A stretch of DNA of 64,000 nucleotides, taken from assembly GCA_965112155.1 (NCBI GenBank), contig OZ218113.1. One strand, written 5' to 3'. This DNA comes from Podarcis liolepis (Eukaryota). The translations under genes and the position numbers were made by a program. How positions within the stretch are numbered: the stretch's first letter is position 1; every line of letters starts with the position of its first letter. The notes beneath the pieces were generated by a model. That model was not told where the DNA came from and searched no databases. It saw nothing but the letters and a program-made list of their open reading frames with translations. This document shows positions 1,236-64,000 of this stretch, piece by piece.

Positions 1236-17527
<16,292 letters not shown>

Positions 17528-42900: not shown

Positions 42901-45900
42901 AGGATTCTAAATATATATAAAAATTGTCCAGTAGCACCTTAGAGACCAACGAAGTTTGCTCTTGGTATAAGCTTTCGTGTGCATGCACATGAAAGCTTAT
43001 ACCAAGAACAAACTTAGTTGGTCTCTAAGGGCTACTGGACAATTTCTTTATTTTTATATATATTTTGACTACGTCAGACCAACACGGCTACCTATCTGAA
43101 ACAGGATTCTAGTTAAGAGTAGAGAAGACTAAAGTCTAAAATCTGCCCACCTCTGGTGTTACAGACTCTGTTAGCTACTTTGTAAAAAAATGTGACCTTA
43201 TAAGAGCTTTAATGTATTCCTCTCCTCCCACCCTAAATAGTACTCCCACCCTAAATATTAAGTGTTTCTCCATAAAAGGTGCCACCAATGGCTGTCTGGG
43301 CAAAGAATAGCTGAACAGTGAAAAGAGAAGTTTACAATGTGCTGCTCTATCCCAGGGAAGACCCCCTGGATGATGGTGGCTTGCTAATGACAGAAGGGGG
43401 GAGAGTGCTACACAGCCCCCGCAAAGGGCAAGCCCAGAGGCACACAACAAGCACTGTTCTGCAACAGCTCCGGGTGTCAGCCTCCCATGTTTTACAATGA
43501 CCTCATTCTTGTCTACACAACAACAAACCAAGCAGTTAGCTCTCTAGCCTGTCACAGACAGCTCCACAGATCTTTACCTACAGAACAATTCCAAGAATGA
43601 CTCGGCTTCTCACATTGCACAGCTACATGGCTCCAAAGTTTTCCAACGTGAAAAATATGTCCTTTCAGACATTCCAACTCCACCTTTCTAGCAGTGCACA
43701 ATGAAAATGGACAATGTCAGAATGAATGGTAAGCAGAGAAAGAGCAGCTGCTAGGGTCAAATAGCTAGCCAGTTAGCTAGTTTGGGGGGTGGGGGTGGGA
43801 GAGAGCTTCCAGAACAAATTAAACCATGTTACAGCCTTACAAATAAGTTCACTGAAGTTTCTGGCCCACAACCATTTTTACTGATGGCCTGAATTATAGG
43901 GGGAAACAAAACAAACACTTCTCTCATTTACAAATGTTTCCATGCCTACTCAACTAGAGGTAAAACAGCCAACTGAGCAAGTGGTTACTTACTTGTTTGC
44001 CACATTGGTAAATATCAATTTCCAAATTCCCTCTTGGACACACAGAACTATCAGTGCTCATCCTGGCCCTTACTAGCACAAAACATCCAAACCACCACAC
44101 AGGGGATAGTAACCGGCAGCCCTGCATCAAATCTGTTGAAATCTGTGTCTGAGTGTCACAAGTGGTTTTCTATTACAAATAAATAAACTGGGGGAGGGGG
44201 GAAATCCTATGCAAATAAGGGCAATTTGAGGGGGAAAGGTTTTGCAGCCCATTGTGATAGCAGCCTGAGAGGTTAAGTGGACCAACTGCATCAAAGGGGT
44301 TAAGAAGTTCCACCACTTCTCTAAAAATTAACTATTTTGCAGATATTGTTCATTTGTTTCCAAGCATCTCTCTGAAATCATGAAACATTTTGTTTTGGTT
44401 TTTTTTAATGAAAACAGTTTCCAGGTTTTGGTAACAGTTGTCAAACTCTGCAGATCTGCTATATTCTGAAAAGCATAGTTTGGGGACTAGGGAGAAGATC
44501 CCACAAACTTTTTCATCTCAAAGCAAACAAAACTGAATGAGGAGGCAAGTCTCAGAATGTCTTACATTTTCGATATCCATTAGCAGCTCTATCCTGCTAT
44601 CCAGGCAAGTTGGTCCTTTCAAAGAAGTCCTGGAGTATCCCATTTGCTATTCTCCCTCTCCACACCCCTCCACCCCACATTTTTGTCCCACATTTTGGCC
44701 ACAAGGATGATCCCACAAGGCGGCTATAAAATTCAAAAATTACAATAAAATAAAACAAAACAAGTTAAAACCAGACAAACCAGAAGTTTCGTCATGCTGT
44801 GGCTCATGCACCCAAGGCCATATTCTAAGAATAGCAAAGTAATTAATCCTACAAACGCACATGGGGCGGGGGGAGCCCCATGTAGCAAAAATTAAATAAA
44901 TTAGAATTATATATTTGCAGGTTTCCCACAGGCATCTGGTTGGCCACTGTGAGAACAAGAGTGCCAGCTGGGTTGGACAGGCCCCCTTTGGCTGGATCCA
45001 GCTGAAGGACTCTTATGTACGTCTTTGTATATACAACCCATCTCTATTGGTACTTGCATTGAAAGTCATTTGTGCAGAACATTCTCACTTAAATGATTAC
45101 TATGGGTTATCTTGAGACATGGGAAATTATTGTACAGGCAACGACCAATTAACGTTCATCCAAAAGACACATGATTGCGCACACACGCACAGTGCTGTAG
45201 TAACCCAAAAACATCACTCAACATTTCACAAAAAGGGTGGAATGGGGGCATGGCAGGGGGAAAGGGGGCAGGGCTGAATGTAGCTGAATACACTTATACA
45301 TGCTCCTCCAATGCACACAGGGGCCAGGAACAGAACTCCTGCACAAAATAGTTGTTGACTGTATTAGTGTAGTGGTGGACTTGTAGCCTTCTCCTTGCTG
45401 CTTGACTCCACTCCACTCCTATCACCCGACCACTCACCATGCAGGCTGGGGCTGATAGAAGTTGGAGTCCCAATTAATATCTGGAGACCAGACACAGGTC
45501 CCCCCACCCCTGATGATTTCCCATACAGCATTTACTTCATCACCTTAGAACTGTTTCTATATACCCAGCATCATTAATGTGTGTTGTGCTTTACAAGTAT
45601 AACAGCAAAACAGCAGGTGCCCATCTATGCTTTGACAGTGAGAAGGACAACAAAGAAGGGAGAGAGATGCACAGCAAGAAGCAACTGTAAGAAAATCCAG
45701 TTACACACACACTTACACACTAGGAATATGTGGAAACTACTGTGAGAGTAAATCCAATGTGCAAGCATAAATGAAGGCTTTGGGCTTTGTTACAAGTGAG
45801 CTGCCAAAAGTGGGAAATAAATATTATAAATACTTAAATCAGGGCAGTCCAACTTTTCATACCAAGTGGACCTCAAGAGTACTTCGACACGGGACCTTTG

Positions 45901-48900
45901 GGCCACACACTGCCTTGTCACAGGGAGAGGAAAGGCCAACATTTGATATACAACCCAGCCTTCATGCTGCCTTCCCAAAGTCAGCTATGCGAGGTGCTGG
46001 GCTTTTGGAAGGAGGTGTGAGGCTCTGGCAGAGTCCTGGAGTCTTCCCATCTCCTTCCCAAAGCTGGGAAAGCACTTTGGGAAGGAGGCAGAAGGACTCT
46101 AGAACCCTGTAAGAGTCCTTACACCTCCTTCAAGGGCTATGCAGGGCAAGGTTCAAATGTTGTTCACTATGCCCCAGAAGACTCTCATCCCTTCCTTTCC
46201 CTTACCTCACCTGGCACAATAATCCAACCACTACAGCAAAGGAAAAACTGCAAACAGGCAGGCAGGCAGACACCAAGCCCAACAGCTAGAATGTCCTTCA
46301 GAAAGATGCTATAGTCACCATGATCTATGGTCAGGTCTTCAAGCTCCCTGTCTTTTTCCTGCTCTCCTTCAATGGCTAGGTTGCTGTAGTCCAGATGAGA
46401 CTCCAACCACCACCCTGCTAGGAAAATGAGAGAGCAGAGCCAAGACAGTTGCCACATCAGGCACCCCTGTTGCTGCTTCTACACACCCATCAGCCTCAAC
46501 CACAACCCTCAATCAGCTAGATCACAATCTCAATTTCACTTAAATATCTGTCACATCAGGCAAATGATGCAAATACAACTCAGTGCTCTGTCTCATCCTG
46601 CACTTTTTGTACTCATGGAAGGAGTGGGGCCAGAAGACAAAAAAGTTTCAGAAAATGCAGCAGGAGCATATCCATTTGTCAAGTGCTTGGGTCACCAGGC
46701 TCTACTCCTGGGCTATCAGCCATCTGAGTACAGTGGTACCTCAGGTTAAGTACTTAATACGTTCCGGAGGCCTGTACTTAACCTGAAACTGTTCTTAAGC
46801 TGAAGCACCACTTTAGCTAATGGGGCCTCCTGCTGCTGCTGCGCCGCCGGAGCACGATTTCTATTCTCACCCTGAAGCAAAGTTCTTAACCTGAAGCATT
46901 ATTTCTGGGTTAGCAGAGTCTGTAACCTGAAGCGTATGTAACCTGAAGCGTATGTAACCTGAAGCGTATGTAACCTGAGGTACCACTGTATTTTTTCCAT
47001 GTGGTGCACAGTCCCTTTTTTCTATCTGTAGAAGGGGAAAGGATAGCAATGGAGCACACAAGAAGGTGCTCATGCAGCTACAAGCCTTTGAGTTCCCCCT
47101 TACCCATTCCACTGTCATAGAGGGAGAGGGGCTGACTTTTTAAATCTTTGAGCTGTAGCTGGAAGTAGTGAACTCCAACGTGAAGGGGCCCAGGGGTATT
47201 TCCAGAGAGACATGATCTACCTAAGATGCAGACTTTTAGTCTTAAAGAGCCAGTAGCTTTTTAGAACTAGAATGGGGACTCATCGGGTTGCCAAAGACAA
47301 GTGGCTACTTACAAGTCTGCGTTAGCCTAACGTACCACCCTTTGCCATAACTATTCCTATTGCTTAGGGTGAAATGAACAATGTAGCCAGCCTATGTTTT
47401 AAAATGAATTACTGGGAGAAGAAAGTACAAACACACAAACTTTCTCCAGTGGCTTTTCACTTTAAGGATACAATTACAATATGTTTTCACAAAGCTCTGG
47501 TTACCATATGCACACACCAAAACCTAGCATTTGTGCTAAGCCCATCCTGTCAGTACAGTTAAAAATATTTTGGTGGTTTTTACTGTCTATTCTTGCAACT
47601 GACTTCTTCAGGACAGAGTTCTTTTCAGTGGAAGTCAGACACTGGCAATCTGATATAGCTAGAATGGGAGCGAAGGAGGCAAAATCTTAAAGGCCACAAA
47701 AAACTTTTTAGGAGGGGCAAATGCAAGCCACAGGTTAGGCACCTGATTAACAGTAACTGCATTTTGAAATAATGACAACTGCATCTATTTTCATGGGGAA
47801 ATAGTATTTGTTAGCTGATTGGCGACATTATAGAGAAATAGCGTGTACAAAGCTAGTGAACAAATATAGCACATAACACAGGCTTACAGATCATGCTGTA
47901 CTTTCTCAACAGATGTTTTAATTTCTAACAAAATAGGAACGGACAAAAACATGAAGGGACAGCTAATTATCTAAGGCAATTACCATGGCATCCTAAAAAT
48001 AGATATCTGTTAGTTATGAAGTTCAATGAAAACTCTCTGATCATTTTATTGCATTCTGTCATTATCTATTACAGGAATTCTTATCTCGCCCTTCCAATAG
48101 ATCCCAATGATGGCTTAAAATACCACTGGGGCATCCAGTAGTCTTTCCTCCAATGACTGATCATGTCTATTGTTTCAGCTTTAGCAACCCTTCCAGCTGT
48201 TCTCAGTCTAGCCAAGATAACACTGCCCATCTCTGCTCTTAACTCAAATCATCATACTACAGTCAGTCTCATCACATATCTCTATGAATTCTGTGATTCT
48301 CTGTTTTCTGTCAAAGGTTCTCACACATCTCTATTTATATAACTCATGGCAAAAATGCCCAACAGCAGGACATTTCAATGCTTGATTAGTCATTTGCTTG
48401 AGGCTACAGTACACACTGCCTTTGGTACACTGTCAGTCGCTGGACATCTAGTCAACCAGGTGAATAGCAAATATGTCTTCCCTTAAATGTCAGCCCTGGC
48501 TAAGGTGGGAAGAAGCACACATGTGCTTCATTCTAACCTGCAAAGCAATTTGTTCTTCTGTGGTAATGGTACAGAGCATCATTTTGCTGGCATGGTTTTC
48601 TAAAGAAATGAAGATGTTGTAAGACAGACACCCCATAGTTATTAGAGTCAAGTCACATTTTCATTCTGCATCTTTATGGCACATTTGTTCAATAGCTTGA
48701 TCACATGCAATTGAAGATGTTATACGCCTTCGATGACTCTGAAATGCTATCTCCAGAAAATGGAGTTCTTCACAGTCAGGTTTACATTTCCAGACAATGT
48801 GATGGAATACACCTGACAGTTAAAAAAAATATCAATCAATAATCATATTATAGCATTGTAAAGGTATTCATTCATACAATTTATATTCCATCCTCCATCA

Positions 48901-51900
48901 ATACCATTGTTCCCATCAGAATGCTACATGACACTATCATGAATAGGAGAAAAATGCAAAATGCAAGTGGAAAAACACAAAAGGGAAAATGATTTCAACT
49001 GCTATGTTAAAAAACACAAAAAGTTTGGTTCTCTCACCAGATGATGGTATTTCAGAGGTTAAAACTAGCACTTTAAATTAGGCCCAGAAAAGGACAGACA
49101 TAATGTGATCATAAAGTCTAGCCTCAGTTAGTAATCTAAAAGACACACGGCACTAACTGGTTTCTAAACAGTCTTTAAAGGCAGTCCCATGTTAAGCACA
49201 TTACAGCCTCTATTCCAGAGACTACCACAGCATGGACAACTGAAGCCAGGCGTCCTCCGTCCATGTACAGTTGCAACTGGTATACTTGCCCAAGTCTGAA
49301 ACGCTATGTACTTACTTGGGAGCAAATCCAATTGAACTCAATGTGGCTTACCTCTGAGTTAACATGTATGCAAAGGGTTTATTATATGTGTTTTTACATG
49401 ATACTTCTACTAAGTAGCATACTGTGGGATTTCTTTTAATCATATCAAGCCTTTGGAACTTCCCAAACTAAGTAAAAAGTGTAGACCAGACATCCCCAAA
49501 CTCAGCTCTCCAGATGTTTTGGGACTACAATTCCCATCATGCCCGACCACTGGTCCTGTTAGCTAGGGATGATGGGATTTGTAGTCCCAAAACATCTGGA
49601 GGGCCGAGTTTGGGGGTGCCTGGTGTAGATGCTACAGCCACAGTCTCTCAATCCATCAGAATGCAAACATTTGTGTTAGGTCTGTGCTTTAATGAATATA
49701 GACAAAAAACTGAAGGAAATTTTGTGAAGAACTTCAGTGGTCAGCAGGGTTATTCATTACCTAAGTACACTGAGGAGCAAGTAGTTTCCAGCTGATGGAA
49801 CAAACTCAAAAACAAGTCTCATCCAATGTCCTAGTAGACTCTGTAGCCAATACTAGCATGAGATTCCATATGAGCAAACACAAGAATGACTGCAAGGCAA
49901 TTAAGATTTAATACATTTGTTCTAACATGAAACTTTACTCAACTTTTAAGTACACTGATTTCTTGTTTTATTATTTTCCCCCACCCAATGAAGTTGCACA
50001 ACATATTCAAGTTATTATAAAAGTCAACCATGAGATTCTGTCAACAACCAGAGTTCTAATCTTGAAACAATAACCAAGCAGGTGAGCAATTATTAAGTTT
50101 TGCTGTAGGAAAGACAACCATTTTCCTTTGCTTGTTCTTTGCCAATCATGCTTTAAGTTGCAGCCAACATGTGGGAGGCTGTCTGGAAAATGTCTGAGTT
50201 CAAACACAATTCTTTCTCACTTCCAACGCCACAGCACCAAATGCTTCATCATAGACACAATTGTAAGGAGATTCAACAATTATTCTCTTGTTTTCAGAAC
50301 AGTTGCATCAAAATATAGGAAAAGATTTCTTTTTTATTCACAACTGTTACTCTAGAAAAGTCCTCCAGCATTTTAATCAGTTGTTTTAATATGAACATTG
50401 TGAAAGAGCAAATCAAAAACACCCTGATAGTTACTGCAATCTTATCTATGCAAATCAGTCTATCCATGAACACCTTCACTATTTTCACACAATAGAATCC
50501 TCCCTAACCTATATAGTGTACACTGCCCTTGCAAGCCCAGTGATTAATATTCATACCAATCAAGGCAGAGCAACAGGTCTATTATTTGCAAGCTAGGTAA
50601 GGACTGCGGCCTGAAATCTCCAGCATCCTAGTAACCCTGAGCTACAGAGGCTGGAAGCCTTCTAGATAGAAGGATGCTGCTCAAGATGGCTGATTTACAG
50701 GCTGTTGGCTGATTTACATCTTACACACCTTTTAAATGTGTTTGTGGGATGGGGGGGGTTATTGCTTTGTGGGTTTCTTTTGTTCTTTTGCTTTTATTAT
50801 GTATTTCATGATTCAATATTGTATTTTTATGTTGTGAACCACCTCCCTGAGATCTATGGATGAAGGGCAGTATACAGTGTTAGAAACTCAGATATATAAG
50901 CTAGGCGCCAAATGGCTCCTGAAACCAAGGTTACAGTAACAAAAATATGCCCAAGCATCTTCACTTGGTTGCAAGTGGCCAATAGCCAGTTGCAAAATGC
51001 ACCTGGCTAATTTCAAACACGGGTGCTACACTAAATAAATAAATAAATGTAGATTCATGACTCCCTCATCAAATATATTTATACATATAATTTTTAAAAA
51101 ACAGTATTTGATTCGCAGAACAAAGAAGTGGCCAGTACCTTTTGCAATCAAGTATTAACATTTCCCCATGGTGCTATGATTCTCTATGTGGGATGTGTGT
51201 ACAAAACAACACATAAACTAATAAATAATACCACTTTTTATTTGCCATGTTTGCCATGGCAACTGTGCTACCACTTTATGCCAAACAAGACAAGCAACCA
51301 GATTTCCTCCCTTCCCAGCATCATCCCAGCAGTTACATGGCAATTCCATCTCCCTTCCAAATGCAAATGCTGGGAAGAAGGATGGGGAGTTGTTTGGTTG
51401 TTTAGTTGCTGAGGTACCCAGCACACATTGCAGCAGTCAAACCAGGGTTCAAAATTAGCAGGGCACCATGCACATTTTGCACCTAAAGATTCTCCATTTG
51501 TGAGCACCTCAAAAAGACTGGGTGCGATTTTTTGCACTGGCTGACACTCAAGCATTATTGAAATGTACAGTCATACCTCAGGTTAAAGTTGCTTCAGGTT
51601 GAGCGTTTTCGGGTTGCGCTCCGCGGCGACCAGGAAGTATCGGAATGTGTTACTTCTGGGTTTCGCCACTTGCGCATGCGCAGACGCTCAAAATGACATC
51701 ATGCACATGCGCAGAAGCGACGAATCGTGCCCCACGTACACGCGGGTAGCGTTCTCTTCAGGATGCGAACGGGGCTCCGGAATGGATCCCGTTCGCATCC
51801 AGAGGTACCACTGTATGTGCTTTGAAGCCTCAAAGTATATGTTAAGGACAGACAATATGTTAAGGAGTTTAACACTAAAGAGTGTTTTGAAAACTAAAGT

Positions 51901-54900
51901 ACGGTACCAACTATTTTTATTATAAACACCATTTTAGACATGTATTAACAATTTCTGCTACAAATGTCATATTAACAATGTTTCGCTTATGTGAATTACA
52001 TATTAGTTCCTGCTTATCAAAATAATAAATAAAAAGTGTCACTGACACACACACACCCCGGCAACTAGACATTCTGTTTTGGCACCCACAACCCAGGTCC
52101 CTTCTATCCGAGTTTCTAACACTGAGCCAAACAGGCATAAACTTTCCTGGTTGGTCCCTATGCAGGACCAACTCAGTTCCTGGTGACTACAATGTTGGAC
52201 ATGCCTAGCACAGGTAGACAAAAATTGTCGATCCCTATACATCAGGTCATATAATGTATTTAGTATTAAATATTCACAATATTAATATCAAACACCATGC
52301 ATCGCACTGAAGACACTGAATACCAGTTTTCTCAATTAAGAATTTTCTAGAAACACACCCACGCTAACATACACATGGAGCATCTTTTTAACAACATGAC
52401 GTGAGGGAGACCATTTCTCAGAGGACCAGAGAATGACATTTCTTGCACCTCATGTTTAGCAATGGAAGACAAGCATAACAACAAACTCAAAGCTATTTTC
52501 TGGCCCTTTATAGGGCTTCACAAATGGGATGGGGTACCATGAAGTTTCATCACAAGCTACGTAACTAGCATTCCCAACAAAGGCAAATAACTTTGTTAAA
52601 TTAATGAAAATATTTGCTGCAGTAAATCTCAACACCGAAGTCAAAGCCTATTAGCAAACCCTTATGCCCCACTGCATCCCATGTATAATAATTTGAATGC
52701 AGAAAATAAATGTTTCACTGAGCTTTCCCCTCTCTTAAAATGTTGCTTAGGCTGTAACACAGAAGCCTCAACCCACAAAAGCTCCAATGCACAGGGTAGG
52801 AAAGTAATTTATTTCCACTACAAACTAATGGAACTAGGTCTAATAATTAGAAAGAACAGGGGTTAACAGCAGCAAAAGAGGAACTATTCATCTTTGTGAA
52901 ATCCCAGCATAAGGTAATTTGTATCAGAAATTTTTCTGATGCCCTAGAAAGTGATCTAATCTTGTAAAAGAAGATGAAAACTTTAATAAGCTCACCTAAT
53001 ATTGTATTTGCAATTGGTATCCACTCATTTTTACTAAAGAATTCATGAAATGGAAAAATTTTCATGGAAAAATAAAGGATTGGTATATGTACATATCATT
53101 GTACACATCTGTATCTTAAAAAATGCAGGGTTTCGTAGGTTAAGAGGAGAAATAAAACAAGAGAACAAAGTATTCCACTTTTAAATTAGGTTGCTGCATG
53201 TGTGTGTGTTTTATTTCATTTGGCCCTGCATACAGGAATTGAGGTCCAGCAAGCCCTGCATCACAGAACAAAGGAGAGGCAATCAAGTACAAGACAAGTA
53301 CTGTACAGGTGAAAGTCAAATACAGATTTTCCCATGGCATTTTTGACTACTGTCTCATCAATACAAAAGGAATTTAAGCTTTAGTAATCTACTGAGTATT
53401 TAGAAACAATGTAAATCCAAGCTGACCGTTATCTTCCTTTGCTCCGTGCATAGACGATTGAAGAGCTTATCCTCAAGAGATTATAAATTTAGAACTATTA
53501 CATTAAAAACAGAACCTGAAGAACCCATTAACCTTATTTTAAAAAATTCAAAATGAAGAGAAAATGTTTTAAGATATCCAGAAACACTTGGCCCATCAGC
53601 TGATGATGAGTTAATTCTACTTGGCCACTATCTCCATGGTGCGCCAACTTTGGAAGGTGGGCAGGGCAACCAACATGTCAATCACCTGATATTATTACAT
53701 CAGATTATTCATAGGTGTGTTCCAGCCCAACTGTCAAATACTGGTCCACAGGTGGCAGGAGAGCTAGATGAAAGTCTGGCCCAGAAGGCCAAAAAGGTTT
53801 CCCGCCCTTGATCTAGTGAGTTACTTCACACGACAGATGTCAAAAGTTAGCTAAGAATATTATAAATAATAAAAAAAATTAAAAATGCAGTTGGGAACAT
53901 TATATTGGTCTTTTGTTTGAGGCCTAAAGCAGGAGCTCAGCTTCAACTGCAAAAGTAGAGTGAGACTAAGGATTACTATTAGCCCTCTTATACACATCTT
54001 AACTTTTAAATATTAATTCTCCAACCCTTAAATAACATTTCTCCCTTTCCCCACTAAACTGCACATGGTGCCATCATACTTTAGACATACCTTTAGATTT
54101 GTCAAATTTTCAAAGGCAAGGAAAACTCTACAACTGCTCCACAGAGCACTGTAGTGATTTAGTATTTTAAAATTGTATAGCACTTTCAAGTGGTCTAAAC
54201 ACTTCACATGCATTATCTAACTGTAATAATCCTTACTATAACTCTGTAAGCAAGTCAGTATGATTTTACATAGTAACATAATGATTAACTCTTTTCTACA
54301 TATTGACACTTTATAATTTCAACAACAAGCAATTCTCTGAAACTAGTACTATATTTGTTCTGTGAAAAACTATACATGTCAGGTGTGCTGCCACAGTTTA
54401 AAAGAAAATCTGGAGTGCTATATTAGGCTGTGATACTCTGGAATTAGTGTTTTCACTTCCAAAGTCACAACTTACTGGCTAACCCTGGTCTGTAAAATAC
54501 TGCTAATCAGCATTCTGAGCAAAAACAAAAATATAAGACACAAAAGATAATTAAGTATTTGGAGAAACCTGAAATCAGGAACATCCGTTCTTTTCTAGTT
54601 CTAGCCATCCTGTTACATTTTATCCAGTGTTCGAAACTAGCCAGGCACCAGGCACATTTTGCACCTGGCTGTCATCTACTTGTGACCAAGTGAAGACGTC
54701 TGGGCGCCAGGATGACATCTGACATCTCCACCATCTGGAGATGCATGCCTGAAGATCATTGTATCTTGACTGTTTTCAAACACTAATACCACATCCCGTA
54801 GAATTCTATCAGTTATTTTTTATCTTCACAATCAGAATGAATTTCAGGAACCAAAATGTTTTTTTTTCCTATGCAGCCTGAGCAGGAGCAGTGAACATTA

Positions 54901-57900
54901 TAGTTACTTGTTGTAGCTTGTTTTCACTTACCCCACCCCAGTGCTTGTACTCACTCAAAGGATGGTAGGAATAGGCCAATATATAACTGGACTGCCCCTG
55001 GATCAAGTGCCTGTTTTCTTTATATTCTCCAAGTTCTTAATCTAGCTGTTATCAGGTACTTAACTGACAATCAATCACAGTCAGTCCATCATTTAAAAAA
55101 TAAACTTTAGAGCTGTCTTACCCAAAAATGGCAACTAGACATTCTGTTTTAGCAACTGTAACCTTGGTTTAAGGAGCCATTTGATGCCTATCTTATAATA
55201 TATGAGTTTTTAACACTGATTTTATCTGCCTCAAAGCAGAGTTTCAGCATAATAATTCTACAAAGTATTTTAGGCTGAGATTTAGATATCAAGAAAAAAC
55301 CAGTTTGCCCAGCAGGGTTAGGCCTCAGATTTATGCATTCCCTCCTCTCCAGTTCATGAAAATGATAATTGCCATCTGATAAAAGTGGATTCTGGTCCAC
55401 AAAAGCTTATACCATTATATATGATAGTTTTTGAGGAGCTACACGAGTCTTTGTTGTTTTTTTGCTGCAACAGACTTAACACTGTTACCTCTCTCAGTAT
55501 TAATTTGCTGAGACATCCAAATCATGGCTACTGCAAACCGTAAGTCCTTTTCAGATGACAAGCTGAGGATAATGAATGCACACTTGAATGGAGGGAAGTG
55601 GGATCATAGCAACAGCTCCCACCCACTACTTACATTCAGGTTATAAATAGATCCTGCACGTGTAAGAGGTGTATGTGCATAAGGACCAGTGATTTAAGGG
55701 GGGGCTCTTTTTTTAGAAGAAAATTCATTGCTATATTTTTGGCAAAACAATATCCATGTCTATTTCAGGAAGTCAGTTAGTAATATAACAAATCAGACTG
55801 GGCAACTGAAATGCCTACAATATTATTTAGATCTAAAACTACAATTTTAATTAATGCTTTCCCCTAGAAATCATATATATTTCTGTGAAGAGCTATTCAT
55901 GCTTTCTAATATTATTATTTCCCCAGTTTATATACCACTTAACACTTCAGTCTCTAAGTCGTGTACAGTAAACAGATACAAGAAAAATAAAACAAGTTAA
56001 AACTAACCTTAAATCAAAATACCTCCTTAAACTGCCTACTCCATGTCTCCTTTAAGCTGAGAGAGCAGCCAAAGGGCGCCTTCATAGGTAAAAAACTGCA
56101 CTCAAAAGTAAGGGTGCTTCATGCACAAGCTCCTTGCAAAATAAAAAAAAAACTCTGACCTGCGGTTTTTGGACTGGTGTCTGGACTGGAACATAGTTAA
56201 TTTTAGTACGCTAACAGTTTTCAGTGTCTTCAATTTTTGATTTAAAATCTAAACTATGTAAGGGATGTATAAGCTATTACATCTTAGTATTCCAATAAAA
56301 AAAATCACATAAGCCTCTGAATTTGTTTGATTATCATATTTAAATCACACATGCCTATAGGACTGCAGCACAAGTGAACATTACTGAGGGAGGGGAAGCC
56401 TAATATTTCAATTCAACTACTTTTGGCTATTTGTGGGGGAAGCTTTTCATGTGTTTATTAAGGATGCAAAATTAGCATGACCTTATTTCTTACCTTGGTT
56501 TATAACTTTGCCTCTTTTCCATTCCTCCTCAAAACTCAACCTTCCTGGTAAACCTTTTCATCACCCCACTAGCACATGTCATTAAACAATCCTGTGCCTT
56601 CCATTTCCAACCCCCTTCCTTTGTTGTTTCCTTGTGTCTATTTTAGACTGTAAGCCCCTTTGGGCTTGAGACCTGTCATACCTGTTCTTTGTAAAACAGC
56701 ATGTACAGTAATAGTGCTGTAAATAAATATATAAATGCAAGTCAACTAAACATGCTCAACAAGGCCCACTTAGCTCTGTGTAAAATTGCCTTGAAGGCTT
56801 TCTAGAAAAATTTCTAGAAAACCCACTAAGTTTATTCTTGGTATGAGCTTTCATTTGCATGCACACGTATTCAGACACCTGAAGAAGTATCTGAAGAAGT
56901 GTGCATGCACACGAAAGCTCATACCAAGAACAAACCTACTTGGTCTCTAAGGTGCTACTGGACAATTTTTTTTATTTTATATTTCTACTGCATCAGACCA
57001 ACATGGCTACCTACCTGAATCTAGAAAACCCACATTACTGGCTTTTCCATACCATCAGGAAACCTGCTTCTTCAGCACCCCCAGTACACTGAAAAAGCTG
57101 TGCACACATATCCTTCCTTCTACATTTTATTTAATACCAGGATGCACATAAGAGCTATTTGGACACTATTCAGAATATACATCAGTCAAGGGTAGACACT
57201 TTCAATGAAATATCACATCTCCCCATCAATTATCCCTGGTTTGTTACAGCTATTGGTTTGCTTCCACACCAAAACAGAAACTATAGTTAGAAATCTGATT
57301 TGGAAGCAAACTTTGGTTTGCAATAATCATAGCTTACCTCAAGGTTGGCTCACCTTTAGACCTCTAGATGTTGGTCAACTACACCTGTCACCATCCCTGG
57401 CCATTGGCCATGTTGACTGGAGCTGATGAGAGTTGGCATCCAGCAACTTCTGGAGGGCCACAGGTTCCCCATCCCAGTTTACCTGATTTGGGCATCACAG
57501 CAAACTATAGTTATAGCAAAGCAAAGTGAAGGAAGAAGTCCAAGACACGAGCCTAACCATCAAACATGGATTGGCGGCTATCTGTAACATGTGAACCAGG
57601 TCACTGCCATGTGCCCAAGACCAACCAATAAAGTCCATAGTTAAAAGCTGATTTGAACCATTATCTTCCCCATCTAAGTCATCATCCAGAATTCACACAC
57701 CATTTCTTGGACAATCACATCACTTTAAAACCTAGCTCCCTGCAATTTTATTATGAAACACTATATTTAGAAGAAGTGTGCTTGTGGGTACCAGATACTA
57801 GGAGGAAGAGAAGATGGTACTCCCATCAAACCCTCTTGTGCAATTTCAGAGGCATCTGGCTGGCAACTGTTACAAACTGAAAGTAAGTCTAGCTAGCCCT

Positions 57901-59814
57901 TTAGTTTAGCAAAGGGACTAAGAATATGAACCACCAAGACCCTAGTTCAAATTTTACTTCAGCCAGAAGTCCCTAGACAGTCCAACTCAGGTCATTCACT
58001 TAATCTCCTACTGTGGGATAACAACAATGTCTGATAAGAAACATAGGTTGAGAACTTTCAGTCAGTGCTCATCTCAACCTAACACGACTTAGTAGGTTGT
58101 TGCAATGATCACAAAGATAATGTATAATAGAAGGCACTAAGTAGAAAACACTTATTTAGCCAACAACAGTTTTTTTTCCCCTTAAGCACTTTGTGTGACA
58201 TTACCTCCAATGTTATCCATCCACATTGCATTCAAGCCTATGGGACTTACATCCCAAGCAAATCTGCTTCGGGTCAGGCTGCAACTATGCATAGCTGCTC
58301 AAGAATAAGTGATATTTACTTTTCAGTAAATATGCAAAGAAATAGGAATGCTTTTTTTCAAACACAATCTCTTCTATTACAGCAGGGAGACATCAGAACA
58401 TTACCACATCTGCAAAGTGTGTGACAAACTATAGAATATTTCACAACCCGCCCTTCACCAAAAGCTGATATTGGAGTTGTCCCCATGACCAAGCAAATTA
58501 TAACCACCACATCATCAAGACAACGTAAGCTTACAGTATTTGTCTTCTTCCTTTAATCCAGGTACACTGCACCTGAACCCTGAGAAAGATGCTTCTACAC
58601 TTCCGCATTTTTAATGTAAGAAATTATCTTCTCAGAGACACATTTGTGCTCTTTCACGACCAGGCTTCTAAATAACAACTGGTTGATGGCAAAATAGATT
58701 GCACCATACAGACAGGTGTCTCTAATTCAGCCTAGCAAGTGGTGAAATACATCACCACCCCAACGTTGTGCACCTGGGATTTTGTGGTGCCTTAAAACCC
58801 AAGTAGTTTATTATAACAGGATCTTCTGTAGCAAGCACCGCGGGGAGGAGTGAAACTAGTGTATATATACACTTGTAAATTTTTTCATGGTATGAGAGTC
58901 AGATTTTGCAAGATGCATAAACACATACTGAATACACACCAGCCAAACACCACTGCCCACTTACTTCATGCATCTGAATCAGGAGGCTCTTCACAGTAAT
59001 TTGTAAAATGTTCAAGTTATCAAAAGATCATTATTACATGGCTACTTTTCAAGAACTTGGGAATTAGGAGACAACTATGCATGAATCCAACCCCCATAGT
59101 ATGCTTTGATACTTCCAAAACACAAACAGCCCAAAAAGGAGGCAAGTGAGGTTGCCAAGCCACTCACAGGAACCAGCAAGGGCAGCTTTGCCAGGAGCCT
59201 ACAGATCCCACTGCTCGCTCTCTCTCTCTGACAGTGTCAAGTTTGGACGAAAAAGACTTGGGGTGGGGGGTGCGCAAGGCTGCCAACCTCTCAACAGGTT
59301 GCTGCAGCTCGGCCTTTCCCCTGGGCAGATCTTTCCTGCTTGTTTACGTCCTATCGCCTCATGCACAGCAGTGAACGTCCATTGTAGGAGGCATCCTTCG
59401 GGTCCAGCTGGTGGGTTTAAAGCGGGGTAGGTCAGGAAAAGGAGGGGGGAGAAAGAGAAAGGAGGGGTGGCGGCTGCTAGATGCCAACTTCCCCACGGGC
59501 CTTTTCTCCTGTGCCTTTAACAGCAGCAGTAGTAGAATATAGAGCCGCCTCGCTCAGGGGGGTGTGGGGAGAAAACTATTCCTATGGGGGAAAGACCTGC
59601 CCCGCTCGCTCTTCTTCCCTTCAGCCAAGGGCCGGAGCCTGCTTTTGAGGCCGAGAGCTCTCGCTCCCATGGCGGGAGGGAAGAGGCCGAGGCGGCGGGG
59701 ATGGCCATTCCATGGAAGCCCCTCCATAGGCAGGCAGAGAGATGCTCCCCCACTCGGGAGAGGCCTAGCAGCAGCAGCGGCGCCTCCTCACCAGGAGTAG
59801 GTCTGCTCCGCCAT
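26852..59814 (-). CDS. SPPL3: Signal peptide peptidase-like 3, GxGD intramembrane aspartyl protease; spliced CDS span, 11 exons, 384 aa
   Basis: Minus-strand exons 59792-59814, 40141-40218, 39092-39180, 37785-37904, 35365-35443, 34114-34226, 31953-32059, 29826-29989, 29405-29604, 28183-28292 and 26852-26923 sum to 1155 nt in frame. The YD, LGIGD and QPALLY motifs are intact; the protein runs from MAEQTYSW to SRFLEV. Confidence 0.98.
27463..27944. mobile_element. Degenerate Tigger-like element in SPPL3 intron 10
   Basis: TA-CAGGCAACTCCCCACTTAC start; GTAAGTGGGGAG at the right end. Confidence 0.5.
28183..28292 (-). CDS. SPPL3: SPPL3 exon 10 ([37 protein letters not shown]; PAL motif)
   Basis: ttgcag acceptor, gtgaga donor, 110 nt. 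Confidence 0.96.
29405..29604 (-). CDS. SPPL3: SPPL3 exon 9 ([29 protein letters not shown]...HCTLIGYFV; catalytic GxGD)
   Basis: ttccag acceptor, gtaagg donor, 200 nt. Confidence 0.96.
29826..29989 (-). CDS. SPPL3: SPPL3 exon 8 ([54 protein letters not shown])
   Basis: Poly-C tract followed by cag acceptor, gtagga donor, 164 nt. Confidence 0.96.
30388..31188 (-). mobile_element. L1/Tx1-type LINE 3' fragment
   Basis: Zinc knuckle [19 protein letters not shown]; AATAAA and A-rich tail; 10-bp TSD ATTGTGCCAT (30378-30387 and 31189-31198). Confidence 0.85.
31953..32059 (-). CDS. SPPL3: SPPL3 exon 7 ([36 protein letters not shown]; catalytic YD)
   Basis: ttgtag acceptor, gtgagt donor, 107 nt. 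Confidence 0.96.
33957..33990. repeat. (CG)n(CA)n microsatellite
   Basis: Read directly from the sequence. Confidence 0.9.
34114..34226 (-). CDS. SPPL3: SPPL3 exon 6 ([37 protein letters not shown])
   Basis: ttccag acceptor, gtaagt donor, 113 nt. Confidence 0.96.
35365..35443 (-). CDS. SPPL3: SPPL3 exon 5 ([27 protein letters not shown])
   Basis: ctccag acceptor, gtaagg donor, 79 nt. Confidence 0.96.
36309..36519. mobile_element. hAT MITE with GATCTAC subterminal repeats
   Basis: CAGGGGTGGCCAAC...GTTGGACATGCCTG; TSD CTCTAGTC / CTGTAGTC. Confidence 0.8.
36799..37039. mobile_element. Tigger-like MITE
   Basis: TA TSD; perfect 18-bp TIR CAGTGGTACCTCGGGTTA. Confidence 0.9.
37785..37904 (-). 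CDS. SPPL3: SPPL3 exon 4 ([40 protein letters not shown])
   Basis: ctgcag acceptor, gtaact donor, 120 nt. Confidence 0.96.
39092..39180 (-). CDS. SPPL3: SPPL3 exon 3 ([29 protein letters not shown])
   Basis: ctgtag acceptor, gtaaga donor, 89 nt. Confidence 0.96.
39442..39693 (-). mobile_element. Squam3-type SINE
   Basis: Same family as 12719-12960; the head is clipped and abuts a DNA transposon half. Confidence 0.8.
39694..40005. mobile_element. One half of a Tc2/pogo-like non-autonomous transposon
   Basis: Ends GGGCGAAAAATACGG-TA (CCGTATTTTTCGC-type TIR); GC-rich hairpin interior; the other end is missing. Confidence 0.7.
40141..40218 (-). CDS. SPPL3: SPPL3 exon 2 ([26 protein letters not shown])
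   Basis: ttccag acceptor, gtatga donor, 78 nt. Confidence 0.96.
42910..43099 (+). mobile_element. Penelope-like fold-back element, palindrome centred at 42983/42984
   Basis: 12-bp TSD AACAGGATTCTA (42898-42909 and 43100-43111); about 63-bp near-perfect arms; same family as 56827-57019. Confidence 0.75.
46731..46988. mobile_element. Tigger-like MITE with a 16-bp tandem expansion
   Basis: TA TSD and TIRs; (TGTAACCTGAAGCGTA)3 at 46921-46968. Confidence 0.9.
49487..49622. mobile_element. Palindromic hAT MITE
   Basis: TSD GTGTAGAC / GTGTAGAT; CCAGATGTTTTGGGACTACAA...TTGTAGTCCCAAAACATCTGG arms. Confidence 0.85.
50875..51021. mobile_element. Old hAT-like MITE; family repeated in SPPL3 intron 1
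   Basis: CAGTGTTAGAAACT...ATTTCAAACACGG; relatives near 51442, 52060-52124, 54625-54784 and 55130-55218, two of which share GGCAACTAGACATTCTGTTTT. Confidence 0.55.
51568..51813. mobile_element. Tigger-like MITE, another subfamily
   Basis: TA-CAGTCATACCTC...GAGGTACCACTG-TA; CpG-rich interior. Confidence 0.8.
55373..55493 (+). mobile_element. Older Penelope-like fragment with a decayed hammerhead
   Basis: CATCTGATAAAAGTGGATTCTGGTCCACAAAAGCTTATACC followed by a CAGACTTAACACTGTTAC end; same layout as the younger copies. Confidence 0.5.
56827..57019 (+). mobile_element. Penelope-like element pLTR fragment with an inverted 5' arm
   Basis: 14-bp TSD TCTAGAAAACCCAC (56813-56826 and 57020-57033); inverted arms; contains GAAAGCTCATACC...GGTCTCTAAGGTGCTAC...CCAACATGGCTAC, which I recognise as a reptile Penelope end. 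Confidence 0.75.
56887..56924 (+). ncRNA. Minimal type I hammerhead ribozyme motif, Penelope-associated
   Basis: Stem I GTAT/ATAC; core CTGAAGA plus one extra A; helix II GTGTG-CATG-CACAC; GAAA; self-complementary AGCT in place of helix III; predicted cleavage after C56920. Confidence 0.7.
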
Positions 59815-60660
59815 GGCGCCGGCGCCGGCCGCTCCTCTCCCTCCTCGTCCTTCCCGTCGTCGTCTTCGTCGTGTCCTCCTGGCTCCCTCTCCCCTTCTCA
59901 GAGGGCTCAGCGGCGGTCCCGCTGCGGCTCCCGGCCCAACATGGCGGCCTCGGCGGCGGCGGCTGAGAGGCGAAGAAGGGAACCCCCTCCGCCCGGGCGG
60001 AGACGCCTCAGCGGCAGCCGCGCCACACGAACCGCAGCGGCAGCAGCTGGGCCGCGCTCCAGCGACGGCGGGCGGGCCTCATGACCGACGGCTACCACGA
60101 CGAGGAGGCGGCGGCGGCGGCGCTGGCCGAGGTGTGTGAGGGGGAACGGGCGGCCAACGAACAACTCCGAAGGCGAGACCGCGCTTGCTCGCTCGCGCGT
60201 CCTCGGGCGGCGGGGGGGGGGGGGAGAGGAGGAGAGAGCGCGAGGGGGCGGGGCTTGATAGGTAGCGCGCGCGCACCACGCCAGGCTAGCGACGCTGGCG
60301 GGTCACGTGCTCACAACAGGCTCACGTGTTTCGACGCAGCAGCCTTTGAGGAAGGAGTCAGAGAGAGAGGGGAGAGAGACGGGTTTTTTGTCGTCTTTAT
60401 GTGTTTGTTTGGAGGCCCGGCGCGCAGCACGCTGTGGGATATGGTTGGGATGAAGGTGAACCGGCAGATGGAGGCGAGTTTAAGGAGAAGAGGGGGCGGG
60501 GATGATGAAGATGATCTCATTGCGCCTGCGCGGCATCCACCCGCGGTGGATAGAAGGGATTCTTTTTTGTTTCCCCCGCCGGGAATCGACGAAGCTTCCT
60601 CGGAAAATGCAGGCGGGCGGGCTGTTTCTCTCACTCGCACCAGCGAAAATTATTAGTATT
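59530..60660 (-). promoter_or_regulatory. SPPL3 CpG island, promoter and 5' leader
   Basis: About 1.1 kb CpG-dense region. GC box GGGGCGGGGC at 60245-60254, GCGC repeat at 60265-60274, CACGTG E-boxes at 60304-60309 and 60323-60328, YY1-type AACATGGCGGC at 59938-59948. Confidence 0.85.
59792..59814 (-). CDS. SPPL3: SPPL3 coding exon 1 (MAEQTYSW)
   Basis: Strong Kozak GGCGCCATGG; donor TG|gtgag; 23 nt. Confidence 0.95.
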
Positions 60661-61246
60661 GCTTTGTTATTAGCACGTGCTGTTTACAAATTGTTCTGTT
60701 TATATATGAGCTGGCAATATACATTATATAGCATTGTTACTATTATTTATTAAATTTATTAGGCGGTGTTTTTCTGCCATAGCAACTTAAAATATGTTAA
60801 GCGAAAAACCACACATATATATACATTGAAACCAGCGTTTTAAAAAATCAATTGTTTTTTGTAAAGATTGTTTTATATTATTTCTTTATTATTTTTCTTT
60901 TTAGGGATAATCGTTTTTTGCTATTTTCTTGTAAATGAGTTTGAATTTTTGTCTTTTAAAATGCTAAAAGAACTTTCAATAAAATTGCTATATATATAAA
61001 AAAGAAACCAGAATTTTTAAAAAATCTAGGAGGATCTAAAACAATTACAATAATTTTATAGCATAGTGCAGTATTGTATTATATTTGTTACCTTTGCATC
61101 CTGCTTTTTCCTCAAAGGCAGCATACATGGTTCTTTCCATTTAATCCCTACAACAAGCCTGTGAGCTAGGTTGGGCTGAGAGTTCACAACTGGCCCCTAA
61201 GGTCGTCTAGTGAGCACGTGGTGCTACGGAACTTACCACCAACCTA

Positions 61247-61579
61247 AAGGGACCCCTGACCATTAGGTCCAGTCATGACCGACTCTGGGGTTGCAGCACT
61301 CATCTCGCTTTATTGGCCGAGGGAGCCGGCATACAACTTCCAGGTCATGTGGCCGGCATGACTAAGCCACTTCTGGCGAACCAGAGCAGTGCATGGAAAC
61401 GCCGTTACCTTCCTGCCAGAGTGGTACCTATTTATCTACTTGCACTTTGATGTGCTTTCGAGCTGCTACGTTGGCAGGAGCTGGGACCAAGCAACGGGAG
61501 CTCACCCTGTCCAACCGCCGACCTTCTGATCGGCAAGTCCTAGGCTCTGTGGTTTAACCCACAGCACCACCTGCGTCCC
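61247..61579 (-). mobile_element. Sauria SINE, full length
   Basis: Highly similar to 381-734; 12-bp TSD ACCACCAACCTA (61235-61246 and 61580-61591). Confidence 0.9.
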
Positions 61580-61850
61580 ACCACCAACCTAGATGGCTTT
61601 TAAAGTGGGTTAGACAAATTCATGGAGGAGAGGGCTATCCATGGGAACTAGCTATGATGGCTATCATCTGCCTCCGGCAGCAGCAGCAATGCTTCCAAAT
61701 ACCAGCTGCTGGAAATCGCAGGAGGGGAAAATGCTCTTGTACTGGGCTCCTGCTTTGTGGGATTCTCCATGGGGCATCTGGTTGGCCACTGTGAGAAAAG
61801 GATGCTGGACTAGATGGGCCATTGGGCCTGATCCAGTAAGCTCTTCTTAT
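61580..61850 (+). mobile_element. CR1 LINE 3' end
   Basis: Same family as 8855-9142; ends CTCTTCTTAT. Confidence 0.72.
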
Positions 61851-62506
61851 CGGCATCCACAGCAGCTGAAACATCTGATTGTAGGCTTTGGAGATGGACA
61901 TATGTGTGATTTTGTTTTTAAGCTTCAATTTGGGTTTTTATTTAAATTCTGTTCTAAGAGATGGTGGATGAACAGTGGAGGCTGGTCCATTAGGGCAAAT
62001 GGGGTACTGCCCCACCAACCATATTCCTCTCTCAGCCAGCTCCCACCTGCCTGCCTTCTCTTTTGGAACTGGCTGTCAGTTTCCTCCTCCTCAGTTTCAG
62101 CATTGCTCTTGTTGAACTCAGCAGGAAAGAGGATTGGAAGAAACCTATTATTTGTTGGCTCTCCTACTTGCTTGCGTTCCTTTCGTTCCACAGCCATCAG
62201 TGAAGACCAGTGAACTGTGTTGTCCTTCCCCCCTACTTGTGCTTCCCGAATATTTTTCACATTTACTGGAAGCGCAGAACTATATCCAAAGATGCTGCTG
62301 GCATACAAAGTGGACGAGCTGTTCCTTCAGCCTATGTATATTATACATAGGCCTTCTAGGTGTAGATTCAATGCAATGGTGTAGTTCAAACGATGGGAAC
62401 ATAGGAAGCTGCATTATACAGTGGGAAAGAGTATTTTGGAAATATGTAAACCTTTGGTCCTGATCCCCCTAAAGCCCTCTAGAGTCTGTGACAAGGACTC
62501 TCCAAT

Positions 62507-62507
<1 letters not shown>

Positions 62508-62537
<30 letters not shown>

Positions 62538-62797
62538 AAGAAGAAGAAGAAGAAGAAGAATTTGGACTTGATATCCCACCTTTTACTCCCCTTAAGGAGT
62601 CTCAAAGCACCTAACAATCTCCTTTCCCTTCCTCCCCCACAACAAACACTCTGGGAGGTGAGTGGGGCTGAGAGACTTCAGAGAAGTGTGACTGGCCCAA
62701 GGTCACCCAGCAGCTGCAGGTGGAGGAGCGGGGAATCAAACCCAGTTCACCAGATTACGAGTCCACTGCTCTTAACCACTATACCACGTTGGCTCTC
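62508..62797 (-). mobile_element. Squam3-type SINE with an expanded (CTT)17 tail
   Basis: (AAG)17 at 62508-62558 followed by the SINE body and head. Confidence 0.82.
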
Positions 62798-62805
62798 TTT
62801 TGGAA

Positions 62806-63352
62806 GACAAGAAGAGCCTGCTGGATCAGACCAATGGCCCGTGTAGTTCAGCATCCTATTCTCACAGTGGCAAGCCAAATACATGTGGGAACCCTGCAAG
62901 CAGGACCCAGGCACAAGAGCCCTCTCCCCTCCTAAGATTTCCAGCAACTGGCATTCCGAAATATTATTGCCTCCTAGAGCATAGCCATTGTGACTAATAG
63001 CCATTGATAGCCTTATTGAATTTGTCCAGTCTTCCTTTAAAGCCATCCAAGTTGGTGGTCATCCCAGCCTCCGGTAGGAGCAAGTTCCATAATGTGCTTT
63101 CCTCTGTCCTAAATATTAACAACATTCAGTTTCATTTGATGTCCATAAGTTCTAGTGTTATGAGAGAAGGAGAAAAACCTTTCTCTATCAACTTTCCCGA
63201 TCCCATGCATAATTTTATAAACTTCTATCATGTTCCAACCACTGATAGGGGAGTTGCTCCATCCCCTTTATCATTTTGATTGCTCTTTTCTTAACCTTTT
63301 CCAATTCTGCAATAACCTTTTTCAGGTGAAGCGACCAGAAGTATACACAGCC
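62806..63352 (-). mobile_element. CR1 LINE 3' fragment
   Basis: Reverse complement of the CR1 3' UTR plus degenerate ORF2 sequence. Confidence 0.72.
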
Positions 63353-64000
63353 TTGTTCTGGATCTCTGGACACCCACTTAGTTTAAGAGGAACAATTGCA
63401 ATGACTGCTTAAAACATGATTATTTATTACTGCATTTATATTCTACCTTTCCTCCAAGGAGTTCAAGGTGGCACACATAGTTCTCCACCTCCTCATTTTT
63501 TCCTCACAACAACCCTGTGAAGTAGGTAAGGTTAAGAGGCAGTGGCTGGCCCAACGTCACCCTTTGTACTCTTATAATGGTGGGCATATTCTACATTGCC
63601 ATTAAAGTCAGTCACCAAGTCTGTAGTCATATTCTGCCAATAAGCAGAAGCATCATCACTCTTAACCATTTTTACAGAGAAAGAAGTGTTTTCTTTAAAC
63701 GATTGCACTGTTATTTGACAGGTGTCAGGTGGTTTAAATTTCTAAATGACGCATTTGATGGTACAAAAGATGCCAATGCAGATGACATACAGCCAAATAC
63801 AATTGGAATTCAGGCTACAGAAGGCAGCACCTGCAAGACACCAGAAGGAAGATCAGTTTTGACAGCTGTTAAGACTTCCCCAAAAAGTTATATGGCTTTA
63901 GCCGTGGGTTTAGTTTCAGGGATAGTGAATTCATTTGCAGTTTTGACTCAGGTTTTGTCTCTTTAATTTCAAAAGATGCCAAGAGGTATCCCCCTTTGTT

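Follow-up and report, generated by a model that had tools for sequence, protein, structure and literature searches.

An inverted pair of hammerhead motifs in an intron of a signal-peptide-peptidase gene

We analyzed a stretch of 64,000 nucleotides from Podarcis liolepis (the window). The host gene encodes a signal peptide peptidase, to judge from a Pfam profile search in which the exon at 29403-29621 (minus strand) matches Peptidase_A22B (PF04258; E = 2.4e-18), and it lies on the minus strand. Its intron of about 19.6 kb (40219-59791, minus strand) runs from a GT donor at 59791 to an AG acceptor at 40219. From short peptide motifs at 59814 (minus strand) and in later exons, we take the gene to be SPPL3, and the same motifs presumably place its first coding exon at 59814-59792 (minus strand) and exon 2 from 40218. 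The splice signals thus agree with an earlier note on this DNA, which had assigned the motifs described here to SPPL3 intron 1.

In this intron, 2.8 kb from the donor, a 193-nt insert (56827-57019) lies between two copies of a 14-nt target-site duplication (56813-56826 and 57020-57033, plus strand), which form a 100% direct repeat; the extent of the insert and the duplication (56813-57033) are additions to the earlier note. The insert consists of an inverted arm (56827-56878, minus strand), which covers pLTR nucleotides +1 to about +52 and is sense in the SPPL3 pre-mRNA; an 8-nt junction or filler (56879-56886, plus strand); and a direct arm (56887-57019, plus strand; pLTR +1 to +133), which runs from the first base of a hammerhead to the end of a tail of about 37 nt. 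Only the plus-strand arm carries the tail, whose sequence is that of the opening codons of the element's open reading frame (ORF). The filler is identical to 56891-56898, so that hammerhead nucleotides 5-12 appear to have been copied again, and near-identical junctions are found in other copies of the family (L158/L159 and L173/L174). As an inverted repeat, the insert has 58-nt arms that are 84% complementary, far beyond chance.

The plus-strand motif (56887-56924, antisense to SPPL3) retains every core base of a minimal type I hammerhead. Its anatomy is as previously described: stem I, a CUGANGA box, an extra A, helix II, GAAA, AGCU, and a CUC triplet. It matches the conserved core (C3 U4 G5 A6 G8 A9 / G12 A13 A14 A15.1 / U16.1 H17), and with C17 at 56920, cleavage is predicted after C56920. 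Helix III can form only between two copies; the palindromic positions 15.2-16.2 allow this in a dimer, and the AGCU duplex has a predicted energy of -3.9 kcal/mol. In the minimum-energy fold of the isolated 38-mer, helices I and II both form (-6.8 kcal/mol, z = -0.44), and neither arm's 38-mer is more stable than its shuffles. Helix II (56899-56912) is itself a perfect 14-nt palindrome, and two copies of it are predicted to pair between molecules at -30.6 kcal/mol, a possible competitor of the helix III dimer.

The minus-strand motif (56841-56878) is a damaged minimal hammerhead that fails the core at G8. Our recount gave the same 5 of 38 differences from the plus arm, at motif nucleotides 3, 10, 12, 24, and 26 (window positions 56876, 56869, 56867, 56855, and 56853): a wobble in stem I (56876), G8>U (56869), a bulge (56867), and two changes in helix II (56855 and 56853), of which the one at 56853 is a common CpG transition of the family. 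Since the gene is on the minus strand, as is the damaged motif, the disabled arm is indeed the one that is sense in the pre-mRNA. Note that the plus arm is intact within the 38-mer and has substitutions of its own beyond it (56936 and 56939).

We also searched positions 50000-64000 with the Rfam covariance models, a check that the earlier note had proposed. No hammerhead family was among the 22 matches at E ≤ 10; the form of the motif is the minimal one, without helix III. Matches to miRNA-precursor models were rejected, as the best scored 45.6 bits against a cut-off of 90 and they reflect the hairpin only.

The insert derives from a high-copy Penelope-like element

We identified a young, complete unit of the parent element (L141; G000:C8:51195000-51204500). 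It has an open frame of 921 amino acids with matches above the Pfam cut-offs to RVT_1 (residues 449-597, E = 3e-12) and GIY-YIG (residues 819-866, E = 3e-5), and two direct pLTRs, 3,019 nt apart, with a hammerhead in each. A truncated copy in tandem and an inverted copy of the 5' part accompany it, and its target-site duplication is 12 nt long. The focal insert matches the pLTR of L141 at 80-81%, and upstream extensions of longer copies of the family enter a GIY-YIG remnant. On these matches, the focal insert is a pLTR-derived piece of an EN+ Penelope-like element (PLE), and the finding of a matching parent with RT and GIY-YIG supports the earlier assignment of this minimal type I hammerhead to such an element.

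The family is abundant. A genome search with the direct arm gave 2,033 first-look candidates, and the 40 that were scored had 89-93% identity. The first 24 nt of the hammerhead have 12,987 exact matches in the genome (2,932 + 10,055). Arms of the family end near +96 or +133. Of 137 arms, 105 have U and 29 have C at the cleavage site (H17, +34), and both focal arms have C; with U at this position, a perfect palindrome of 6 nt results, through which A14 could be paired in a dimer.

Between the young L141 and the older copies L004 and L005, the hammerhead differs at just 1 and 0 of 38 positions. In contrast, 8 of the 45 upstream flanking positions differ, as do 6 and 5 of the 40 downstream. That the hammerhead is nearly invariant while its flanks diverged suggests that it was kept under selection while the element was mobile. 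A search for patterns of compensatory change in helix II gave 58 matches, nearly all of them point mutants of the same family, with no clearly compensatory sister family among them.

Head-to-head pairs are a common product of the family

Among 90 loci that were picked by a pattern 3' of the core, tight head-to-head pairs make up 39 of 103 clusters, and five of the 39 keep the full span of both cores. By hand count, 8 pairs have exact 24-mers in both arms among the 122 matches listed for C1:1-5.53 Mb, which extrapolates to about 850 such pairs genome-wide. Exact flanking repeats of at least 9 nt were found for 36 of 59 inverted clusters (a raw count, with no shuffle control). On this evidence, the back-to-back arrangement is a common product of this PLE family and nothing special.

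A second insert of the same family lies in SPPL3 intron 1 (42898-43111), with a 12-nt duplication (42898-42909 and 43100-43111). Its arms meet inside the helix II palindrome (about 42977-42990), and therefore neither has a CUGANGA box. The predicted fold of its minus strand is -109.9 kcal/mol over 210 nt.

How might such pairs arise? The two arms appear to share a template: by hand count, the base at +34 agrees in 31 of 35 pairs and the base at +40 in 27 of 33. Where arms end on their 5' side is also informative, with 18 of 151 ends at +1 and 19 of 151 at +13/+14, in the helix II palindrome. We propose that the element's endonuclease makes a staggered cut with 14 nt between the nicks, and that both target ends would then prime reverse transcription, with uncleaved RNA of the element as the template: one end at the tail (+133), the other internally near +52 and aided by microhomology with the target end. 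Both cDNAs would extend to the likely 5' end of the RNA, hammerhead nucleotide +1, and would be joined head to head, here with the 8-nt re-copied filler between them and in general via the helix II palindrome or by end joining with filler.

This model of two primers is inferred, and fold-back self-priming of a single cDNA yields an identical layout. We consider it possible, at rather less than even odds, that one cDNA folded back and primed itself or that a DNA hairpin was replicated. In that case, the cluster of changes in the inverted arm would come from error-prone repair acting on the palindrome, and a single event would have produced both G8>U and the substitution two bases from it. Arm junctions do cluster at the self-complementary helix II (the 19 ends at +13/+14), and fold-back self-priming at palindromes was proposed for rotifer PLEs in the part of PMC3846280 available to us. 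Also, contig X11 (record 1) drops out of alignment at 56867 and leaves three letters unaligned, in contrast to the full match of X12 (record 9), which hints that the double change is recent. On the other hand, the focal junction has 8 nt of re-copied filler and no pairing across it. Either way, the verdict on function given below is unchanged.

Five arms that end at +36, next to the cleavage site, were rejected as a record of cleavage. Each of them follows one and the same short foreign end (CTG before a TA), and in four cases (L054, L058, L062, and L116) the missing 5' piece is a few hundred bases away. We take L054, L058, L062, L089, and L116 to be copies split by later Tc1/mariner-like insertions at a TA by the cleavage site. 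A true cluster of ends at the cleavage site was not found among the 151 arm ends, and the raw reads of X19, which cover repeats only and no unique flanks, list no pile-up of read starts or ends.

The two arms are predicted to mask each other

The earlier note had cautioned that the arms may pair and mask each other, and folding bears this out. The 106-nt region with both arms has a predicted energy of -59.8 kcal/mol on the plus strand (z = -12.1) and -71.7 kcal/mol on the minus strand (z = -16.1). With both arms present, forcing the ribozyme fold would cost 34.9 kcal/mol on the plus strand and 53.0 kcal/mol on the minus strand, that is, in the pre-mRNA. The cost is similarly high in natural intact pairs (53.6-62.5 kcal/mol in L011 and L021) and is just 1.7-4.7 kcal/mol in three solo copies. 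These values are equilibrium predictions, and by them the ribozyme fold is not readily accessible in its own two-arm context.

Transcription of SPPL3 follows the minus strand and so reaches the complementary arm first, and the sense hammerhead is predicted to be zipped up on emergence. The sense arm has likely been masked since insertion. For helix III, the sense hammerhead would further depend on a second copy, and given both the masking and this need, it probably never cut the SPPL3 pre-mRNA; both arms have presumably drifted since they were inserted. Studies of related ribozymes bear on this point. In PMC4209133, monomers of minimal hammerheads showed no activity and dimers showed little. 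An Anolis PLE hammerhead needed the element's protein for cleavage (PMC11167929). According to PMC2995048, which cites Dye 2006 and Fong 2009 for this, splicing was not disrupted by slow hammerheads in introns.

Core decay in the family argues against selection on the SPPL3 arm

The earlier note suggested that the disabled sense copy could reflect selection against self-cleavage of the intron. If so, the core should decay differently from other positions, or differently in the two orientations. Neither was found. Substitutions affect 37 of 979 non-CpG core positions and 169 of 4,453 non-core positions (p = 1.0), so the core decays at the non-core rate. The CpG at C11.1-G12 decays symmetrically (G12>A in 29 and C11.1>T in 34 of 135 arms). 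The core is broken in 35 of the 74 arms that span it: 13 of 30 arms in pairs (within an intron, a pair always puts one of its arms in sense) and 22 of 44 arms outside pairs. As about half of the old arms are broken, a pair with the sense arm broken and the antisense arm intact is expected about one time in four. In the inverted pair L113, G12 was lost in both arms; this pair adjoins long exons that we take to be spectrin-like.

To compare the orientations genome-wide, as the earlier note had proposed, we used base skew, a noisy proxy for transcription direction that could dilute real differences between sense and antisense; its only check is that it has the right sign over the window's two genes. 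By this proxy, broken cores are equally frequent in sense (15/70) and antisense (16/80) arms across 120 loci, and also at a skew of at least 0.04 (7/32 versus 9/37; 51 loci). Equal decay in the two orientations is the outcome that the earlier note had named as refuting its selection idea. These thresholds remove many loci (69 of 120 at 0.04 and 100 of 120 at 0.07), and the second set, of 60 loci, was picked for having an exact 5' half and bears on the 3' core and on orientation only. Two pairs, L237 and L253, have both cores intact in strongly skewed DNA.

At the focal locus, the inverted arm has 6 substitutions relative to the family majority over 50 shared positions (counting one deletion and leaving out three subfamily-variable sites), as compared with 2 in the direct arm. 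The inverted arm is the more changed of the two, and the asymmetry is not significant (p = 0.29). In the chosen 38-mer, it is 5 (sense) versus 0 (p = 0.06).

We estimate at about 0.88 the probability that this locus is a fold-back insert of a high-copy PLE, with a 14-nt duplication and arms that are predicted to pair, in which the damage to the sense arm is likely neutral decay. The opposing view, that the sense hammerhead cut the SPPL3 pre-mRNA and that G8>U and the helix II changes were favored for disabling it, could appeal to the broken arm being the sense one, with 5 changes versus 0, and to the depletion of tandem hammerhead retrozymes in Xenopus introns (10.64898/2026.07.22.740005, in the part available to us, where strand was not analyzed). 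We consider it very improbable. The sense motif is masked by about 53 kcal/mol and depends on dimerization, core changes are not in excess across the family, and by the skew proxy sense and antisense cores decay equally. Other pairs are just as uneven, in either direction (5 versus 0 in L110, 6 versus 2 in L091, and 1 versus 5 in L041). Furthermore, a single disabling change would have been enough, but non-core bases were altered as well.

Purging of solo sense copies at insertion is a distinct claim from selection on the SPPL3 arm. Solo, unmasked, and intact sense hammerheads might be removed from introns, with the survivors being antisense or self-masked fold-backs. The counts of intact solo arms lean this way: 22 sense versus 28 antisense overall, 7 versus 14 at a skew of at least 0.04 (p = 0.19), and 3 versus 6 at a skew of at least 0.07. 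Both fold-back inserts of SPPL3 intron 1 also have their tail-bearing arm in antisense. However, no count is significant (p = 0.19-0.5), and in an unmasked first pass, tail-bearing arms leaned the opposite way (28 sense versus 18 antisense). A bias towards antisense is also general for intronic retroelements and not specific to ribozymes, according to the available part of PMC3517506. We therefore regard purging as improbable, while giving it a better chance than selection on the SPPL3 arm. In the neutral reading that we prefer, the locus is one of hundreds of similar fold-back scraps and gives no evidence for selection on SPPL3. Caution is needed in PLE-rich reptile genomes, where pairs of an intact and a disabled hammerhead arise by default.

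The junctions of the insert are present in contigs of organisms B, C, and D. For organism D, the differences from the window over 56700-56864 are confined to the flank; D matches the window inside the insert up to 56864, and therefore three of the changes in the inverted arm are shared. The contigs of B, C, and D break at the palindrome, and positions 56867-56869 are covered only in X12, which is perhaps the window's own source; X14 has no cover at 56777-56811. The end of the X11 alignment at 56867 is a weak hint that G8>U is recent.

A possible transcript start at the first base of the hammerhead

Copies of the 24-mer that lack the upstream T are more frequent than decay would explain: 2,932 of 12,987 (23%), versus about 4% expected from ordinary decay. 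In 29 of the 30 such loci that we examined, the element simply ends at +1. A G precedes +1 in 62 of the first 100 T-less rows listed, versus 30% expected, and L004 and L005 have a TATA box at -31. For comparison, an extra G marks the cap at full-length 5' ends of L1 (PMC11702581, available part).

We tentatively suggest, at somewhat below even odds, that a capped Pol II transcript starts on the first base of helix I, that tail priming yields 5' copies of about 135 nt, that helix II joins the cDNAs, and that the hammerhead acts as a 5'-terminal de-capping switch. If this is true, priming internally at the tail would account for the large number of minimal hammerheads that stand alone, and insertion would be limited to uncleaved RNA. 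Against the cap, the G before +1 is often preceded by filler or lies within a duplication or palindrome. We treat the extra G as a lead and not as proof of a cap: 9 of 20 solo tailed ends had it, in 3 of these 9 it is the last base of the flanking repeat, and some of the 20 "solo" rows are short inverted copies. A 3' splice site at +1 is not favored either, since splicing would retain the T at position 0, which is absent from these copies, and since the stretch from the TATA box to +1 is too short for an intron. Among titles and the starts of abstracts, with few subscription papers covered, we found no published +1 or capped start for a PLE. The sharp stop at +1 and the junctions in helix II yield specific predictions on the start of the RNA and on the function of the hammerhead.

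Comparison with known elements

The focal motif resembles the minimal hammerheads of PMC4209133, which are likewise type I with a short helix I, a long helix II, an extra base before helix II, G10.1-C11.1, a palindromic 15.2-16.2, no helix III loop, and thousands of dispersed copies. That study also reports pairs of minimal hammerheads that lie close to each other on the two strands, and it notes that turtle and snakes have similar motifs. The spacing of its pairs is about 100-700 nt, as compared with 8 nt here; its supplementary alignments may include this reptile family.

As far as the available parts of PMC3846280, PMC8557442, and PMC2377424 describe them, insertions of EN+ PLEs share with our family a head-to-head inverted 5'-truncated copy, a tail of 30-40 nt at a single end, duplications of 8-14 nt, palindromes at the junctions, and partial tandems (as in L141). 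Unlike those insertions, the focal insert has no ORF body and consists only of the stretch from hammerhead to tail. In the text available on it, Penelope of D. virilis has a TATA-less internal promoter, whereas our family has the TATA box at -31. For PLE integration, of which the cited literature leaves the inverted-repeat step unexplained, this family as a whole offers a large natural data set.

A reptile parallel is Poseidon PAc from Anolis carolinensis (PMC11167929). Going by the accessible part of that paper, PAc is also a PLE with RT and GIY-YIG, a hammerhead in the pLTR, and a tail inside the start of the ORF. Its ORF begins within stem II, whereas the ATG in L141 is at +98, 60 nt beyond the hammerhead. 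The same part reports that a change of G8 abolishes cleavage, that uncleaved RNA is the main template, that the protein cuts and extends both strands, and that reverse transcription starts at two sites that bound the tail.

Non-LTR retrozymes, in the portion of 10.64898/2026.07.22.740005 available to us, are also short, non-coding, pLTR-derived hammerhead repeats of vertebrates. They are head-to-tail tandems that are able to dimerize, whereas the focal pair is inverted and cannot; retrozymes comprise at least two head-to-tail hammerhead units, and the focal insert has no such array. Another parallel is the 5' inversions that arise by twin priming of L1, for which the available part of PMC11702581 describes an inverted 5' part, microhomology at the second site, an extra cap-derived G, and discrete duplications of 12-18 nt. 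The parts of an L1 inversion cover adjacent segments of the RNA, whereas here the segment from +1 to +52 is present in both arms, which takes two passes or two RNAs.

Other repeats and genes in and near the window

Several other features lie near the focal insert. About 370 nt from it, the window carries another high-copy short repeat (57392-57475), which in contigs is frequently found next to inverted copies and joined to them. Two short minus-strand copies of the young subfamily with intact cores (L144:1222-1350 and L144:5451-5579) lie 5.5 and 9.8 kb upstream of the start codon of SPPL3, and still further upstream is a truncated fold-back copy (L145:7598-7733). Elsewhere in the window, we take a 295-amino-acid frame at 11472-12359 (minus strand) to be a C-terminal remnant of a non-LTR retroelement, and 12840-13244 (plus strand) is presumably an exon of a gene resembling short-chain acyl-CoA dehydrogenase.
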